Below, in pieces: positions 2,651 through 8,280 of a stretch of 8,280 nt of DNA (its first letter is position 1; the number at the start of each line of letters is the position of its first letter). Position numbers and translations under genes: made by a program. Origin of the DNA: a virus (lineage: Duplodnaviria > Heunggongvirae > Uroviricota > Caudoviricetes); IMG/VR virus record IMGVR_UViG_2690316227_000016, one strand, 5' to 3'. The notes below the pieces were generated by a model. That model was not told the DNA's origin and did no database searches. It saw only the letters and a program-made list of their open reading frames with translations.

Positions 2651-2848
2651 ATGGTTGCCGTAAATCATATACCACACCTTGTACACACACAAACGGCCTT
2701 TGTGTGGCGTTTTCTGGCCCTGAGTGCCGGAGAATCTCAAATCATCCACGTAACCGCCTGGACGGAACGCGAAGCGCGTAGCCGTTGCCCGTCCGGTTGT
2801 GTTGCTGTATTCGCCGCCCGTATTCGTCAGGGGTCACATCATGCGTAA
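2651..2848 (+). CDS. Icd-like small protein, copy 1 (host cell division inhibitor Icd-like family, tentative)
   Basis: 65 aa with an AGGAG 6 nt upstream of ATG 2651. Shares the motifs FVWRF...T...TEREAR...FxARIRQG with the ORF at 3135. The family name is from recollection of P4-like prophage annotations, not a search. Confidence 0.5.
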   Translation: MVAVNHIPHLVHTQTAFVWRFLALSAGESQIIHVTAWTEREARSRCPSGCVAVFAARIRQGSHHA

Positions 2849-2868
2849 AAACCGCTTGCAAAAAATTA

Positions 2869-3105
2869 TAACGGGGCTGTATGCTTCCCCCGTCGCCCAC
2901 ATGGCGACCGGGTTTAGCAGCCTGAATACTGTAGCGGACAGCCGCTTATATTCCGATATGCGGTTTTTTTGTGTCCGTAAGCCTACCCATACCCGCATTA
3001 TGGCGGGGCGTAACGGGGGAGCCTTTGCGCTCGCTGGTTCCTACAGTGCCAGTCTGCTAACCCTGTTACGTCTCGCCACCCCGTTTAGCAGCGTAGTAGC
3101 GAGAC
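2869..3105 (+). repeat. Duplicated non-coding module between the Icd-like genes
   Basis: TAACGGGG at 2869-2876 and 3011-3018. GTTTAGCAGC at 2912-2921 and 3083-3092, followed by GTAGCGGACAG and GTAGCGAGAC respectively. A near-complementary CTGCTAA-CCC element sits at 3054-3063. Small hairpins at 2871-2893, 2892-2908 and 2992-3007. Confidence 0.4.
2934..2970 (+). terminator. Intrinsic terminator-like hairpin plus T7
   Basis: GCGG-aca-GCCGC (2934-2945) and a CCGC...GCGG stem (2942-2963) followed by T7 (2964-2970). It lies inside the apparent N-terminal extension of ORF 2799..3299, which argues that the extension is non-coding. Confidence 0.5.
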
Positions 3106-3134
3106 TCCTTAAAATTACTGTAGGAGCCTTTCAC

Positions 3135-3299
3135 ATGGCTGTATCCGCACGCCCTTACTTTGTCTGGCGCTTTATGCAGTGCCACCACAGCTGCATTGAT
3201 GTATTCACCGTTACCGCTGCCACTGAGCGCGAAGCACGCGCCCAGCTGCCGCACGCACATCTGATTTTTGTCGCCCGTATTCGTCAGGGGGTTTTGTGA
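3135..3299 (+). CDS. Icd-like small protein, copy 2 (paralog of 2651..2848)
   Basis: 54 aa. The TAGGAGCC ribosome-binding context 8 nt upstream of ATG 3135 mirrors that of copy 1. Conserved motifs YFVWRF, TEREARAQLP, FVARIRQG. Its TGA stop overlaps the next start (TGATG at 3297-3301). Confidence 0.5.
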   Translation: MAVSARPYFVWRFMQCHHSCIDVFTVTAATEREARAQLPHAHLIFVARIRQGVL

Positions 3300-3531: not shown

Positions 3532-3831
3532 ATGAAACTTAAATATCCTGGCTTAACTGCCAGCGGCAAAACTCGCACTAAATTCATGTGCGGGGATATT
3601 TACCGCGATAAGTACGGCGGAACGGTAATGATTAAGGGCGTGGAGGAACGGCGCGTAACTTACCGCCGTGAAGGCTACGAATATGATTGCGTTATGCCTG
3701 TTTATCAGTTCGACCGTGATTTTTATCTGGTACAGGCAGCGCCCCGCAGTAAGCCAACCAGCAGGGAGAAAGCACGCGCCAATATTCAGGAAATAAGAAA
3801 GATGTTGAACGTATTCAGGGGTAAAAAATGA
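3532..3831 (+). CDS. Hypothetical protein (99 aa)
   Basis: Begins MKLKYPG. Its stop overlaps the start of the replication ATPase (ATGA at 3828-3831). Protein-like composition; possibly a prophage DUF family, unverified. Confidence 0.5.
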   Translation: MKLKYPGLTASGKTRTKFMCGDIYRDKYGGTVMIKGVEERRVTYRREGYEYDCVMPVYQFDRDFYLVQAAPRSKPTSREKARANIQEIRKMLNVFRGKK

Positions 3832-5237
3832 AACTTGCACCGAACGTAAAACAATTACCGAAAGACAAATACACCGAAGCAATTATTTTCGCGGGGAATG
3901 ATGCGCACTCATTTGCAGAGCACTACATCATTGCACAGGCCAAAAAAGCAGGCGATCCAGTCCCCCCCGTTTATCTGGGGTGTTATCAGTTAAGCGAACT
4001 GGATAACCTCCAGATTGTTGATGATGGGCGATACAGGGCGACGGTGATACGCGCCGGAAATATTGAAGAGCCGCAGCTGTTAACCATCGCCACGAAACTG
4101 GCGATCGCCGGAGTCCAGGAGGCGCGGCTAATTTCTGAAAATTTCGAATTGCTGGAGGAATGGAACGACCAGCTTCCACGGCTTAGGGAGGCATGGGAAC
4201 GCGGGGAAAGCCTGGTCATGAAAAAAATCCCCCAGCGAAAAACCACGCTACCGATGAGCGTTGGATCTACCGGATACGACACGCAGCTTGATTACGTGGT
4301 AAAGGGGATTATTCCGGCATCGTCGCTTTGCAGCATATACGGGGCGAGCGGTTCCTATAAATCATTCCTTGCCGGATCGTGGGCGTGTCACGTTTCCACG
4401 GGCCGCCAGTGGGGAGGCCGCAGGGTGGCGCATGGCGCTGTTCTCTATGTGGTTGGTGAAGGCGGTATTGGCGTTCCGCGTCGTGTAAAAGCCTGGGAGG
4501 TTGTGCACGGGGAGCAGGTGAAAAATCTTTACCTTGTAAACCGTCCCATCTTTCCGGCTGTCCCGCTTGATGTTGATGAACTGGTTATTGCTGCCAGCCA
4601 GGTTGAGCGGGAAACGGGTAAACCGGTTCTAATGATTATTCTGGACACGCTGGCGCGTTGCTTTGGCGGCAATGACGAAAATGACTCCCGTGACATGGGG
4701 GCGTTTATCCGTGGATGTGACGAACTGAAACGACGCACAGGGGCCACGGTGCTGGTGGTTCACCATTCCGGCAAGGATGAAACAAAGGGCGCGCGTGGTT
4801 CCAGTGCATTCCGTGCATCGCTGGACGCTGAATACAGGATACGCAGAGAGGACGCAGGAAGCGAAGCGCTGGTCATCTCATGCACCAAAATGAAGGACGC
4901 GGAGGAACTCAAAGAGGCTGCCTATGATTTGCGGGTTGTGGAGCTTTTTACCGACGCTGACGGCGAATTAATTACGTCGCTGGTGGTGGTGGATGAGCCG
5001 CGCCCACCCGTTGAACTGGAGCGCATCGAGGAGGCAGGCAACAAGACGGAAAACCATACCGCGCTATGGGGGTGCATCCGTTCACGCACACAGAACGGCG
5101 ACAAGTGCACGATCCCGCTGTTGCGTGATGACATGAAGAAGATGGGATACGAAATGAAGCACTTCCGGCGCTGGCTGGGCAAGCTGGAAAAAGACGGCGT
5201 TATCTATGTTGACGGCGATGATGTAGGGCCACTGTAA
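3828..5237 (+). CDS. Replication ATPase/helicase, RecA-like (AAA_25/RepA-type); probable satellite replication initiator
   Basis: 469 aa with a P-loop-like GASGSYKS, a Walker B-like PVLMIILD, and the VLVVHHSGKDETKGARGSSAFRASLD block typical of RepA-like NTPases. The C-terminal roughly 100 aa could be a DNA-binding domain. An iteron array follows directly. Confidence 0.85.
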   Translation: MKLAPNVKQLPKDKYTEAIIFAGNDAHSFAEHYIIAQAKKAGDPVPPVYLGCYQLSELDNLQIVDDGRYRATVIRAGNIEEPQLLTIATKLAIAGVQEARLISENFELLEEWNDQLPRLREAWERGESLVMKKIPQRKTTLPMSVGSTGYDTQLDYVVKGIIPASSLCSIYGASGSYKSFLAGSWACHVSTGRQWGGRRVAHGAVLYVVGEGGIGVPRRVKAWEVVHGEQVKNLYLVNRPIFPAVPLDVDELVIAASQVERETGKPVLMIILDTLARCFGGNDENDSRDMGAFIRGCDELKRRTGATVLVVHHSGKDETKGARGSSAFRASLDAEYRIRREDAGSEALVISCTKMKDAEELKEAAYDLRVVELFTDADGELITSLVVVDEPRPPVELERIEEAGNKTENHTALWGCIRSRTQNGDKCTIPLLRDDMKKMGYEMKHFRRWLGKLEKDGVIYVDGDDVGPL

Positions 5238-5440
5238 AAAGTGGGAAGTAAAAGTGGGGAGCATGGGGAATTTAACAAAATTTAAACACGCTTCCCCACT
5301 TTTCGACCTGTATACACCCCAAAAAGTGGGGAGCAAAAAAATCCTTATGAAACAGCATGATAAAAATTACAAATCCCACGCCTTTAACGAGGTGGGGAAT
5401 TGTGAAAAGTGGGTAGTAAAAGTGGGTATAGGTGGGGAAA
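5237..5440. repeat. Iteron array, putative replication origin
   Basis: Six full copies of AAAAGTGGG(G/T)A at 5237-5246 (ending in A rather than G/T), 5250-5260, 5293-5303 (inverted), 5322-5332, 5405-5415 and 5418-5428, plus half-sites GTGGGGA at 5392-5398 and 5432-5438. AT-rich stretches are interspersed, and the array starts at the stop codon of the replication gene. Confidence 0.6.
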
Positions 5441-5448
5441 TAACCAAA

Positions 5449-5691
5449 ATGCGCAGAGACAGAACACAGCAAAAATATAAAGCGTTAGACATGACAGAGC
5501 ACGCTTTAAAGGTGGCAATCAAAGTTATAGACCGCCACACGCGGGAAGGATACGCGAATGAACATCCCGAACTGATAAGCGCATTCATGACCACAGCGGC
5601 GGCAAACTTTGCCACGCTGACAGAACGGGAGATTGCCGAAGCGGAACAGGTAACAACCATCAACGTTAAAACCGGAGAGGTGGAATCATGA
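5449..5691 (+). CDS. Hypothetical small protein (80 aa from ATG 5449; track ORF extends to 5254 across the iterons)
   Basis: The stop overlaps the ssb start (ATGA at 5688-5691). The upstream extension is encoded by the iteron repeats and is probably not translated. No family recognised. Confidence 0.4.
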   Translation: MRRDRTQQKYKALDMTEHALKVAIKVIDRHTREGYANEHPELISAFMTTAAANFATLTEREIAEAEQVTTINVKTGEVES

Positions 5692-6098
5692 CAGCACAGA
5701 TAGCAGCTTACGGGCGGCTGGTGGACGACCCGCAGGTAAAACAGACCAGCAAGGGCACACCGATGACGCTGGCGCGTATGGCGGTATCACTGCCATGCAG
5801 TCAGGCACAGGACGGACAGGCGACGTTATGGTTATCGGTCATCGCATTTGGCAAACAGGCCGACCAACTGGCAGGACATGAGAAAGGCAACGTAATCAGC
5901 TTATCCGGCGTGATGCAGGTCAGTCAGTGGACCGGACAGAACGGGGAGACGCGTCAGGGTTATCAGGTCATTGCCGACAGCGTAATCAGTGCGAAAACGG
6001 TGCGACCAGGCGGGAACAGACGCAAGACCACAGGCACACAGGGTAATCAGCCACCAGCGGGAGGCGATGATCCTTACGGTGATGATATTCCGTTCTGA
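5688..6098 (+). CDS. ssb: Single-stranded DNA-binding protein (SSB family)
   Basis: 136 aa with an OB-fold-like N-terminal region (GRL..DP, W at about position 48, FGK, KG), a Gly/Pro/Gln-rich linker and the characteristic acidic C-terminal tail DDIPF. Confidence 0.8.
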   Translation: MTAQIAAYGRLVDDPQVKQTSKGTPMTLARMAVSLPCSQAQDGQATLWLSVIAFGKQADQLAGHEKGNVISLSGVMQVSQWTGQNGETRQGYQVIADSVISAKTVRPGGNRRKTTGTQGNQPPAGGDDPYGDDIPF

Positions 6099-6415: not shown

Positions 6416-6577
6416 ATGGCTATCACAGAACGCGAGGCAAGCATCATTAAGGCCATTGGCGAGGAAACAAGAGACACAATAGCGCCATTGATGGAAAAGA
6501 TCGCAGAGCTTGAGACACGAATAAACAAGCTGAGTAATGAAGTTGAAGGCCTGATCTCGTTACTCGGTGAGCAATGA
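6416..6577 (+). CDS. Hypothetical small helical protein (53 aa; not in the ORF track)
   Basis: Translated by hand from ATG 6416 to TGA 6575-6577 as MAITEREASIIKAIGEETRDTIAPLMEKIAELETRINKLSNEVEGLISLLGEQ. It starts 4 nt after the previous stop and has coiled-coil-like composition. Confidence 0.3.
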   Translation: MAITEREASIIKAIGEETRDTIAPLMEKIAELETRINKLSNEVEGLISLLGEQ

Positions 6578-6580
6578 CAT

Positions 6581-6630
6581 GGGGGGGTATCATCCGGCGA
6601 AAAAAACGATCGCCACGGACACCGCCCCCC
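6581..6630. repeat. Imperfect inverted repeat capped by G7 and C6 runs
   Basis: GGGGGGG (6581-6587) and CCCCCC (6625-6630) with partly complementary arms (CCGGCG and CGCC) around an A7 centre. No T-run follows. Confidence 0.25.
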
Positions 6631-6660
6631 GTCTCATTCGTAGAAAATTTTGCTTTTCAA

Positions 6661-6684
6661 AAAAGTTACACGAAAAGTTACACC
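6661..6684 (+). repeat. Tandem 12-bp repeats AAAAGTTACACG / AAAAGTTACACC in the terS leader
   Basis: Two adjacent 12-mers read directly. The exact 12-mer AAAAGTTACACC recurs at 6927-6938 inside terS. Confidence 0.55.
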
Positions 6685-6705
6685 CCCTCAAAACGAGGTT
6701 TTTGC

Positions 6706-7194
6706 ATGGCATTAACGACCAAAAAAAAGCGGTTTGCTGATGCGTTATCAAGGGGCGCAAATCCCACGGAAGCCGCTATACATGCGGGATACAGCGAAAA
6801 GACCGCAAGGGTTAAAGGCTGGCAGCTATCCAACGATCCTGAGGTGAAAAAGTATCTTAAGGCTGTAACTTCTGATGTAACTTTTCAGGTTACAAAACCG
6901 AAAAAAGTTACAAAGAAAGTTACCGAAAAAGTTACACCGGAACGGGCATCAATTAACACCATTGAGATGATGGATAACGGCCTACCCGACCCCATCAAAG
7001 CAATGGGCAGGATACTGATTGACAACATGGACACAGATCCAAAACTGGCTTTAGATGCCGCGTTTAAGCTGGCCCAGTTCACCCACCGCAAGATCGGCAG
7101 CATTGGGAAAAAAGAGGTTAAAAAACTCAATGCCGCTAGTGTCTACTCAAATCGGTTCCCCATCCCTAAGCTACCAACAGACTTAAAACACTGA
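6706..7194 (+). CDS. terS: Terminase small subunit (Terminase_2 / SaPI-TerS-like family)
   Basis: The N-terminus KKKRFADALSRGANPTEAAIHAGYSEKTA matches the conserved HTH of Terminase_2 small terminases (KRFA...AAI.AGYS.KTA). GAGG lies 8 nt upstream of ATG 6706. The track ORF from 6574 is an untranslated in-frame extension. Confidence 0.7.
   Translation: MALTTKKKRFADALSRGANPTEAAIHAGYSEKTARVKGWQLSNDPEVKKYLKAVTSDVTFQVTKPKKVTKKVTEKVTPERASINTIEMMDNGLPDPIKAMGRILIDNMDTDPKLALDAAFKLAQFTHRKIGSIGKKEVKKLNAASVYSNRFPIPKLPTDLKH
6864..6938. repeat. Phased GT(A/T)AC array inside terS (12-bp period, both orientations)
   Basis: GTAAC at 6865 and 6877, GTTAC at 6889, 6907, 6919 and 6931, with spacings of 12, 12, 18, 12 and 12 bp. 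Encodes the VT-x-x repeat in KPKKVTKKVTEKVTPE. Confidence 0.5.
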
Positions 7195-7205
7195 GGTAGC
7201 GAACT

Positions 7206-7367
7206 ATGAGCGAATACATCACAGACCCTATTGATGTACTCACGGAAATCATGAACGACAAGCAGCAGTCGACCGAAATACGGTTACAGGCCGCCGCTGT
7301 TCTGATGCCATATTTTCACGAAACACTAAACCCGTGCTTCCAGGAGGAGGAAGAAGATGATTTCTAA
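7206..7367 (+). CDS. Hypothetical small protein with acidic tail (53 aa; not in the ORF track)
   Basis: Translated by hand as MSEYITDPIDVLTEIMNDKQQSTEIRLQAAAVLMPYFHETLNPCFQEEEEDDF. GAGG lies 9 nt upstream, and the ORF overlaps the next gene's start by 11 nt. Confidence 0.3.
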   Translation: MSEYITDPIDVLTEIMNDKQQSTEIRLQAAAVLMPYFHETLNPCFQEEEEDDF

Positions 7368-8280
7368 AAACATGAAAGGCGTGTCGGCAGTTCGCGCCGC
7401 CAGCGTGCTTACATCGTGTAAATTCAGCCATGCAGACGCTATAGAGATGACGAAAAGAAATGATCCGGCAGTATCGAAATTTCTTGAAAAATCCATTGTT
7501 GCCGGAATGACTACGGATAATATGCCGTCGCTGGTGGCAGAGCCGATAGTAAGAGAGCTTGGTGAGTATATTTTTTCGCAGTCTGTACCAGGCAAGCTAA
7601 TCAGCAGCGGGCTGAATCTTCCGTTTGGCGCAAAATTGCAGTCAATATCAGGCAAGGGTAGTAAATGGCTTAAAGAAGCCGAAGAAATCCCTGTCAAAGA
7701 GGGAGAAGTAAACGAAAGCGCGCTAAAACTGTGCAAACTTGGCGCTATTGTGATGCTGAATAACGAGCTAATCAAATTTAGCACCCCTGGCACCAATTCA
7801 GCGATCAGAGACTTGATCACATCGGAATCGGTGAAAGAAATAGATAAAAAATTTCTTTCCAGTGACAAGGAGGTGGCTGGCGTATCCCCTGAGGGCGTGC
7901 TTAATGGTGCTGATGAGGCCGAAAACTTCATAGAGCTTTTCAAAAAGCACATAGCGAACGGTAACACGCTTTCCACGTCGTCGCTAATCTTGCCCGTAGA
8001 AAACGCCTTACAGCTTACTGATGCTGAGTTCTGGCAGATAGAGCTTTTGAGAATACCGGTAATTGTGAGCGAACAGGCGGATCGCATGATGCTGATAGAC
8101 GCTCAAAAGCTGATTATTAACGTTGAAGCCACGGTTATAACCCCAACTGATGAGGCGGTAATAAAAACCGAATCAGGGGCGGTTAGCCTTTTCCAGAATG
8201 ACGCTACAGCGTTCAGGGCAATCACCTATTGCGGATGGCAAAAACTCGATAAGGCCGTCACCGTTCTGGCGAAAAGCTGA
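7357..8280 (+). CDS. Probable HK97-fold major capsid protein
   Basis: 307 aa with GGAGGAGG 6 nt upstream of ATG 7357. The C-terminal region LLRIPVIVSEQ...LIDAQ...FQNDATAFRAITYCGWQKLDKAVTVL follows the usual HK97-type capsid C-terminal pattern. The stop falls at the window end. Confidence 0.55.
   Translation: MISKNMKGVSAVRAASVLTSCKFSHADAIEMTKRNDPAVSKFLEKSIVAGMTTDNMPSLVAEPIVRELGEYIFSQSVPGKLISSGLNLPFGAKLQSISGKGSKWLKEAEEIPVKEGEVNESALKLCKLGAIVMLNNELIKFSTPGTNSAIRDLITSESVKEIDKKFLSSDKEVAGVSPEGVLNGADEAENFIELFKKHIANGNTLSTSSLILPVENALQLTDAEFWQIELLRIPVIVSEQADRMMLIDAQKLIINVEATVITPTDEAVIKTESGAVSLFQNDATAFRAITYCGWQKLDKAVTVLAKS

Follow-up and report, generated by a model that had tools for sequence, protein, structure and literature searches.

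A probable iteron-type replication origin next to a RepA-family helicase gene in an Escherichia coli phage-inducible chromosomal island

The stretch of DNA analysed here, referred to as the window (8280 bp, virus record IMGVR_UViG_2690316227_000016), carries a rep gene (3828-5237, + strand) whose 469-residue product was assigned to the RepA-family (AAA_25, RecA-fold) helicases/initiators by Pfam, phrog_2850, a profile match to 1g8y and an AlphaFold model. The gap between rep and the next gene (5238-5448) is filled with short repeats, and in an earlier note, made from the sequence alone, the segment 5237-5440 was proposed to be an iteron-type origin in the rep-ori arrangement of satellite islands. 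Searching with AAAAGTGGGKA and allowing at most one mismatch, we obtained six matches in the entire window, all of them within 5237-5428, as compared with 0.32 matches expected from dinucleotide shuffles; six were reached in none of 200 shuffles. As the earlier note had described, these six full copies occur in both orientations, with starts at 5237, 5250, 5322, 5405 and 5418 on the + strand and one copy (5293-5303) on the − strand, the pairs 5237/5250 and 5405/5418 show a spacing of 13 bp, and the first copy overlaps the stop codon of rep (TAA, 5235-5237). The note had also listed two half-sites; short sites are indeed present, but four were counted, at 5262-5270, 5391-5399 and 5431-5439 (+ strand) and, reversed, at 5372-5379. 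No second iteron cluster was found in the window.

Two direct arrays lie on either side of a central dyad. The left array (5237-5270, + strand) consists of AAAAGTGGGAA at 5237-5247 (one mismatch), AAAAGTGGGGA at 5250-5260 and the short site CATGGGGAA at 5262-5270, and the right array (5391-5439, + strand) of GGTGGGGAA at 5391-5399, AAAAGTGGGTA at both 5405-5415 and 5418-5428, and again GGTGGGGAA at 5431-5439. A 55-nt segment of the left array (5226-5280) recurs as a direct repeat in the right array (5394-5448) with 73% identity. The dyad itself (5293-5332) is built of the reversed iteron at 5293-5303, TGTATACA at 5309-5316 and the forward iteron at 5322-5332, which together form a 40-bp imperfect palindrome with 20-nt arms, 80% complementary and with zero gap between them; we propose that Rep assembles here in pairs and that melting begins here. 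Apart from its reversed iteron, the only reversed site is the short AATCCCAC (GTGGGATT on the minus strand) at 5372-5379. A+T-rich DNA between the copies, as previously noted, was confirmed by the G+C content, which is 0.52-0.62 in rep and drops to 0.39-0.43 over 5200-5450. A first A+T-rich tract, TTTAACAAAATTTAAAC, lies at 5271-5287, and a long A+T-rich spacer (5333-5371; G+C 0.39-0.41, low-stability 20-mers at 5334-5357) separates the dyad from the right array. Within the region, duplex stability is lowest in the 20-mers that begin at 5266-5270 and 5354-5357 (80-90% A+T, and 85-90% for those beginning at 5266-5270).

An open reading frame with a GTG start (5254-5691) that would translate the repeats was rejected, as the family profile begins at the ATG at 5449. 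The gene starting there (5449-5691, + strand; 80 aa) matches phrog_1231 over profile positions 5-83 of 83 (E = 1.2e-49). In relatives, in-frame stops are located 6-78 nt upstream of the downstream-gene ATG, and the gap lengths of 199-211 nt leave all three remainders when divided by three. On account of these three observations the repeats are considered to be untranslated, and the possibility raised in the earlier note, namely that they encode a conserved N-terminus of the downstream gene, did not hold. The start codon annotated for this gene in relatives lies three codons earlier (ATGACCAAAATG); the corresponding triplet of the window is ATA. The last short site GGTGGGGAA (5431-5439) is placed 9 nt 5′ of the ATG at 5449 and, judging from its position, may double as the ribosome-binding site of this gene. 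A search of 5230-5450 for DnaA boxes (TTATCCACA, at most two mismatches) and for the integration host factor (IHF) consensus revealed neither, and scans of the putative origin for Fis-like sites and GATC gave nothing, the absence of GATC being insignificant for 220 bp.

Rep is composed of an N-terminal domain (residues 1-125) to which no Pfam family could be assigned, an ATPase core (about 150-390) and a C-terminal winged helix (408-469). The core matches Pfam AAA_25 (E = 3.7e-42, residues 151-318), and phrog_2850 matches the protein over its full length; by sequence, the closest solved relative of the core is the RSF1010 RepA helicase (1g8y, E = 1.5e-4, residues 153-318). An AlphaFold model of full-length Rep (pLDDT 67.7, pTM 0.51) gave weak Foldseek matches to the RecA-fold proteins RadA, Rad51 and T7 gp4 (best E 1.8e-3), on the basis of which Rep is taken to have a RecA rather than an AAA+ fold. 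Because this model was middling and its matches weak, the C-terminal 75 residues were modelled alone. Residues 408-469 (coding region 5049-5234, + strand) were thereby confidently predicted to form a winged helix with helices at 408-422 and 429-438, a recognition helix at 446-455 and wing strands at 459-462 and 465-468, the fold matches of which include Fur and LexA. The rep gene is intact, and the glycine-rich and acidic motifs of the ATPase core are invariant among relatives. Two relatives differ ahead of the helicase: in P0120 (680 aa), a zinc-ribbon and a Toprim primase replace the N-terminal domain before the same helicase, and P0071 (563 aa) shows a PF02924 match ahead of AAA_25 that may be a gene-calling artefact.

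A winged-helix protein next to repeated sites could also point to operators, through which Rep or another island protein would control the downstream genes for a single-stranded DNA-binding protein (SSB) and for packaging, with no replication start involved. Many winged-helix proteins are repressors, Fur and LexA among the fold matches being examples, and iteron-binding plasmid initiators often autoregulate. The outermost sites are also suitably placed, the first overlapping the rep stop codon and the last possibly overlapping the ribosome-binding site mentioned above. This explanation is nevertheless very unlikely, as neither a sigma-70-like promoter nor a terminator was found in a scan of 5100-5600, the arrangement of ten sites over 200 bp, including a conserved dyad surrounding TATATA as well as A+T-rich tracts, is that of an origin rather than an operator, the putative binder also carries a helicase ATPase, and the equivalent segment of the phage-inducible chromosomal island (PICI) EcCICFT073 is needed for plasmid maintenance (PMC6092414). 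A regulatory side function would be compatible with an origin.

Iteron sequences were then compared with the C-terminal domain of Rep across homologous islands, as proposed in the earlier note. A scan of one genome per GTDB species yielded 80 loci, mostly from Enterobacterales and including two Oceanospirillaceae-related genomes, and in nearly all of them short repeats begin at the rep stop codon. The iteron classes follow the residue just before the recognition helix, which in the window is His445 (codon CAC, 5160-5162, + strand; motif K-x-F-x-R-W-L). His at this position is accompanied by GTGGGG[AT] in 11 loci and, where it is preceded by Arg-Lys, by GTGGGGGC in two; Lys goes with GTGGGGGAA and Asn with GTGAGG (28 loci each), and Ser with GTGCGGC (8 loci). 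In 66 loci, which reach from the Enterobacterales to beyond, residue 445 and base 4 of the core corresponded without exception: Asn with A (22/22), Lys with G (22/22), His with G (14/14), Ser with C (6/6) and Gly with C (2/2). The mutual information at column 445 equalled the class entropy of 1.374 bits, which was true of no other column among about 330, the next best Rep columns reaching at most 1.23 bits and showing exceptions. Four alleles fetched after the rule had been formed were all consistent with it (Lys-Asn-Met with GTGAG, Lys-His-Leu with GTGGG, and two Arg-Lys-Gly-Phe loci with GTGCGCG). This covariation, though a matter of sequence comparison, supports the earlier suggestion that the C-terminal domain of the ATPase is the likely iteron binder. 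Furthermore, the iteron classes interleave on a tree of the ATPase core, on which Fitch parsimony counts 11 residue changes; hence the Rep C-terminal tail and the origin move together, independently of the core.

Other candidates for the specificity determinant were discarded. Further covarying positions such as residue 460 (Tyr to Arg, window versus the CD45 copy described below) fail across genera, where only 445 holds. The DUF4222 protein encoded upstream of rep (3532-3831, + strand) is unlikely to bind the iterons, as 97 of its 99 residues are identical in the window and the CD45 copy despite their different iterons. The phrog_1231 protein is likewise an unlikely binder: L093 and L094 keep matched Rep/iteron pairs, and their downstream neighbours differ in size (163-170 aa, with no Pfam family recorded).

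The coupling of tail and origin is also evident at close range. E. coli CD45 (locus L001) carries a 97%-identical copy of the island, and comparison in 50-nt blocks showed 96-100% identity on both sides of a single divergent patch at 5144-5443 (+ strand), within which identity drops to 54-88%. This exchangeable specificity patch comprises Rep residues 439-469 and the whole origin. The two Rep proteins are 98% identical, and all six changes of the C-terminal region fall between residues 439 and 467. Among them is H445N, and the full-length iterons of CD45 as well as one short site have A in place of G at core base 4 while their positions are unchanged; this joint switch implies selection for matched pairs. 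Rep of the window is 74-98% identical to its E. coli relatives, and among the E. coli copies all ten window sites keep the GTGGG/TGGGG core while the spacers diverge. When 5238-5448 was aligned with L001-L006, the origin of the window appeared as a mosaic: the dyad flank TTTTCGACC and the long spacer resemble Asn-class origins (EcCIO42-like), and the left spacer and all iterons belong to the His class. Such a pattern suggests patchy recombination within the 200-bp origin.

Of 5426 complete E. coli genomes, about 1650 contain the rep-ori cassette, and E. coli genomes with any match to the region have up to 7 such matching places. Its right boundary is the phrog_1231 gene, which is no part of the origin; in many E. 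coli islands, similarity to the window sets in only at about 5438. With the boundary lying right after the repeats, these move together with rep. This also bears on a possible role of the repeats as a packaging signal (a pac or cos region) recognised by the small terminase (TerS) of the island, a homologue of which is encoded about 1.1 kb downstream (6574-7194, + strand). Some pac regions characteristically contain repeated short sites. However, besides the placement of the boundary, the repeat sequence tracks a residue of Rep and not TerS, and relatives with the same cassette, for example L003, L005, EcCIO42 and L089, have no TerS gene at the same place, all of which renders a packaging signal extremely improbable.

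A common layout was found in about 75 of 84 loci and in every iteron class. Two or three direct copies starting from the stop codon are followed by a spacer, a reversed copy, 6-9 nt, TGTATA/ATATAT, another 6-9 nt, a forward copy, a spacer of about 55-60 bp and finally three or four more direct copies. A distance of 30-33 bp, corresponding to about three helical turns, separates the cores of the dyad arms, and a reversed copy at the relative position of 5372-5379 occurs in the Xenorhabdus loci L008, L081 and L007. Between dyad and right array, many distant loci of different iteron classes (L032, L034-L038, L044, L046, L053, L054, L058, L082, L086, L094 and L095) conserve a non-iteron element of about CTGAAACC..C.TCATTACTGG, which may be a host-factor or priming site. 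At this position the window has only TGAAAC (5346-5351), and the Xenorhabdus loci conserve ATTGATTTTTAAGGATAAA in the long spacer instead.

No match to rep-ori was obtained in the phage collection. The plasmid collection gave five, among them three records of very large size (171 kb to 1.4 Mb), which may represent chromosomal sequence wrongly assigned to plasmids, and one 17-kb Klebsiella episome. The latter (CP018459.1, pKp_Goe_795-4 of K. pneumoniae, L095; 16,971 bp, circular) was deposited as a plasmid and contains an island with integrase, capsid and terminase genes, a homologous Ser-class Rep, and GCGGC iterons in the same layout. It appears to be an excised satellite that was assembled as an episome, which is compatible, on circumstantial grounds, with an episomal form that replicates.

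In Gram-negative PICIs, the origin is located 3′ of rep, where an A+T-rich region is flanked by two sets of iterons (Fillol-Salom et al. 2018, ISME J, PMC6092414). The window agrees with this description in that all copies lie directly 3′ of rep within 5237-5439, a left (5237-5270) and a right set (5391-5439) surround A+T-rich DNA, and Rep is a helicase with a predicted C-terminal winged helix. The closest published counterpart is EcCIO42, a reference island and one of the four Pri-Rep alleles (PMC6092414), which shares the backbone, the position between the DUF4222 and the phrog_1231/SSB genes and a RepA-family Rep homologous over its full length. This Rep is annotated as ‘helicase RepA family protein’ under an accession adjacent to that of the L003 Rep (466 aa), which is near-identical to the EcCIO42 allele and about 80% identical to Rep of the window. 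The EcCIO42 origin has the same length and layout with a central CGACCTGTATACA and can be aligned column by column with that of the window, including the dyad. It differs in its iterons, AAAAGTGAGG, with the core GTGAGG versus GTGGGG/GTGGGT in the window, residue 445 being Asn versus His, and the N-terminal 125 residues of Rep also differ. In replicon type the window therefore agrees with EcCIO42, but it carries a different specificity allele.

EcCICFT073, the rep-ori of which supports plasmid maintenance (PMC6092414), has the same order of Icd-like, DUF4222, rep, gap, small open reading frame, SSB and PerC/capsid, with its origin in the gap 3′ of rep and short repeats in both orientations. 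In contrast to the window, its iterons are GGTAGAYA, the left and right sets are opposed, and the gap measures 288 bp. The first 125 residues of the window Rep (3828-4202) share 48% identity with the N-terminal part of the EcCICFT073 Pri-Rep (L087:2242-2620), beyond which the latter is an unrelated D5-like superfamily 3 (SF3) helicase (D5_N/DUF5906/Pox_D5 in place of AAA_25). With a shared N-terminus and unrelated remainders, two different helicase alleles that occupy one position in the island thus use a common N-terminal module. Recombination at about Rep residue 124 is seen in many E. coli copies (matches start at query base 373).

Reps of the Staphylococcus aureus pathogenicity islands (SaPIs) bind iterons via a C-terminal winged helix and have been described as self-loading (Qiao et al. 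2022, PMC9371898). The SaPI Rep-ori (Ubeda et al.; PMC9371898) resembles that of the window in combining initiator and helicase in one protein with a C-terminal winged helix, in having 6-12 iterons directly downstream of rep with an A+T-rich centre, and in the lack of a known separate loader. SaPI Reps, however, are AAA+ SF3 helicases of 3′-5′ polarity, as opposed to the RecA-fold RepA/DnaB-like Rep of the window, and their iterons are 5-6 nt long, at least two per side and opposed, whereas those of the window are about 10 nt long and form co-directional arrays with a single central inverted pair. Classical iteron plasmids of the Rep_3/RepA type (F, R6K, RK2, pPS10) are more distant: the present iterons measure about 10-11 bp and not 17-22 bp, DnaA box and IHF site were not found in 5230-5450, and the initiator bears an AAA_25 ATPase. 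RSF1010 RepA, which shares the AAA_25 core, is a 279-residue helicase devoid of a DNA-binding domain, the IncQ iterons being bound by a separate RepC, whereas the helicase of the window carries its own winged helix. The P4 alpha protein binds its origin through a C-terminal winged-helix domain, which recognises short repeats; one cluster of these adjoins the alpha gene. Like Rep, it is a multidomain replication protein of an enterobacterial phage satellite (P4 is mentioned in PMC6092414); unlike Rep, it combines a primase with an SF3 helicase and acts on two separated sites, ori and crr, the homology being limited to the fold class. Consistent with this distance from P4 alpha and D5-like proteins, Pfam detected only AAA_25 in Rep, and no D5_N or SF3 domain.

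The repeats, their position and layout and the published PICI parallels support an iteron-type origin as claimed in the earlier note, and 5237-5440 is very probably the replication origin of a PICI of the EcCICFT073/EcCIO42 type. Origins of this kind and at this position have already been published for the island family, one of them belonging to an allele whose Rep is of the same family. Iteron sequences are not given in the supplements of PMC6092414, a full-text search for iteron strings returned only unrelated primer sequences, and no description of the His/GTGGG-class specificity allele was found in the literature searched.

Several points weigh against this assignment or against the mechanism proposed below. 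The only functional test in the family was performed with EcCICFT073, whose Rep core is the unrelated D5-like SF3 helicase, and in the transfer table the marked strain 042 (EcCIO42) showed zero transfer (PMC6092414). Opposed iteron sets as in SaPIs (PMC9371898) were not found, both flanking arrays being on the + strand; the least stable DNA of the window lies outside the A+T-rich tracts; and clear iterons are missing in six loci with various residues at 445. Pfam recognised no primase domain in Rep that would account for priming, and the mediocre full-length model is too weak to fix the oligomeric state and the domain arrangement. Moreover, the covariation establishes linkage of the Rep tail with the iterons and not physical contact by residue 445.

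The zero transfer of EcCIO42, an island with the same Rep family, might also be read as a sign of an origin by descent that is now dead, the island being a small remnant in which the repeats are kept by linkage only. In line with such decay, the element is small, with about 9.1 kb separating the presumed attachment (att) repeats in CD45, its packaging genes amount to TerS and one capsid-family gene, and a neighbouring gene is a pseudogene in CD45. Yet rep is intact with invariant core motifs, the cores of all ten sites persist amid diverging spacers, the concerted G-to-A and H445N changes imply selection for matched pairs, and about 1650 of the 5426 complete E. coli genomes have the cassette, so that a dead origin seems very unlikely.

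For a functional origin, the observed repeats and conserved layout, together with the computed fold prediction, residue-base covariation and cassette exchange, led us to infer a course of binding, melting and self-loading by analogy with the SaPI Reps (PMC9371898). The winged helix of Rep would read the iteron of about 10 bp, AAGTGGG(G/T)A, and contact to base 4 of the GTG-N-G core would be made by His445, where the recognition helix starts. With Rep bound to both dyad iterons (5293-5332), two Rep assemblies would flank TGTATACA, separated by about three helical turns and facing the same side of the duplex, and the direct arrays on either side would recruit more Rep. The A+T-rich tracts near the dyad could then melt, the RepA-like helicase would load itself with neither a separate initiator nor DnaA, and the SSB of the island, encoded two genes downstream, would coat the opened strands. 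That residue 445 directly reads core base 4 and, in addition, that this Rep family represents RecA-fold (SF4-like) helicases which recognise their own origin and self-load at the conserved dyad is a combination we hold tentatively, at slightly under an even chance. To our knowledge, the helicases of satellites and viruses otherwise documented to recognise their own origin and load themselves are of the SF3/AAA+ type. A one-residue/one-base match and a conserved dyad in a RecA-fold initiator-helicase, as suggested here by alignments and models, were not found in the searchable literature.

If true, a single residue change along with a concerted change of about ten repeats would suffice for a new, mutually compatible replicon specificity. 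Matched classes of Rep tails and iterons would explain how related islands share a cell without cross-talk between origins, and the residue-to-base rule offers a testable handle on replicon specificity that may be of use for orthogonal small replicons or for predicting island interference. In terms of annotation, origin, initiator and cassette boundaries (specificity part about 5144-5443) are now fixed for a PICI type that about one in three complete E. coli genomes contains, while the general picture of satellite replication is unchanged by these findings.

The remainder of the window is that of an E. coli PICI with the backbone common to EcCICFT073 and EcCIO42. All genes lie on the + strand: a tyrosine integrase (1-1242) with integrase domains, an AlpA-like excisionase/regulator (1739-1945) recognised by its phrog, and an Icd-like protein (2799-3299) precede the DUF4222 gene, and SSB (5688-6098), TerS and a capsid-family protein (7357-8280) follow the phrog_1231 gene. 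Evidence for att sites came from the CD45 copy, which adjoins tRNA-Pro between yejM and yejO and is flanked on both sides by a 26-nt direct repeat, TTTTAGTTATACGTTT(A/G)GTTATACGG (L001 7913-7938 and 17002-17027, 9.1 kb apart), that likely represents the att site. Just past the capsid gene of CD45, outside the window, a 33-nt repeat including the palindrome CCCGATATGGGGATCCCCATATCGGG occurs twice, 118 bp apart (L001 16774-16806 and 16892-16924). Two adjacent Icd-like genes of CD45 (window about 2370-2850) share a 24-nt direct repeat, TTTGCCGCTCGTATTCGTCAGGGG, in copies that are 92% identical and 457 bp apart (L001 10850-10873 and 11307-11330), which hints at a tandem duplication of the Icd-like gene.

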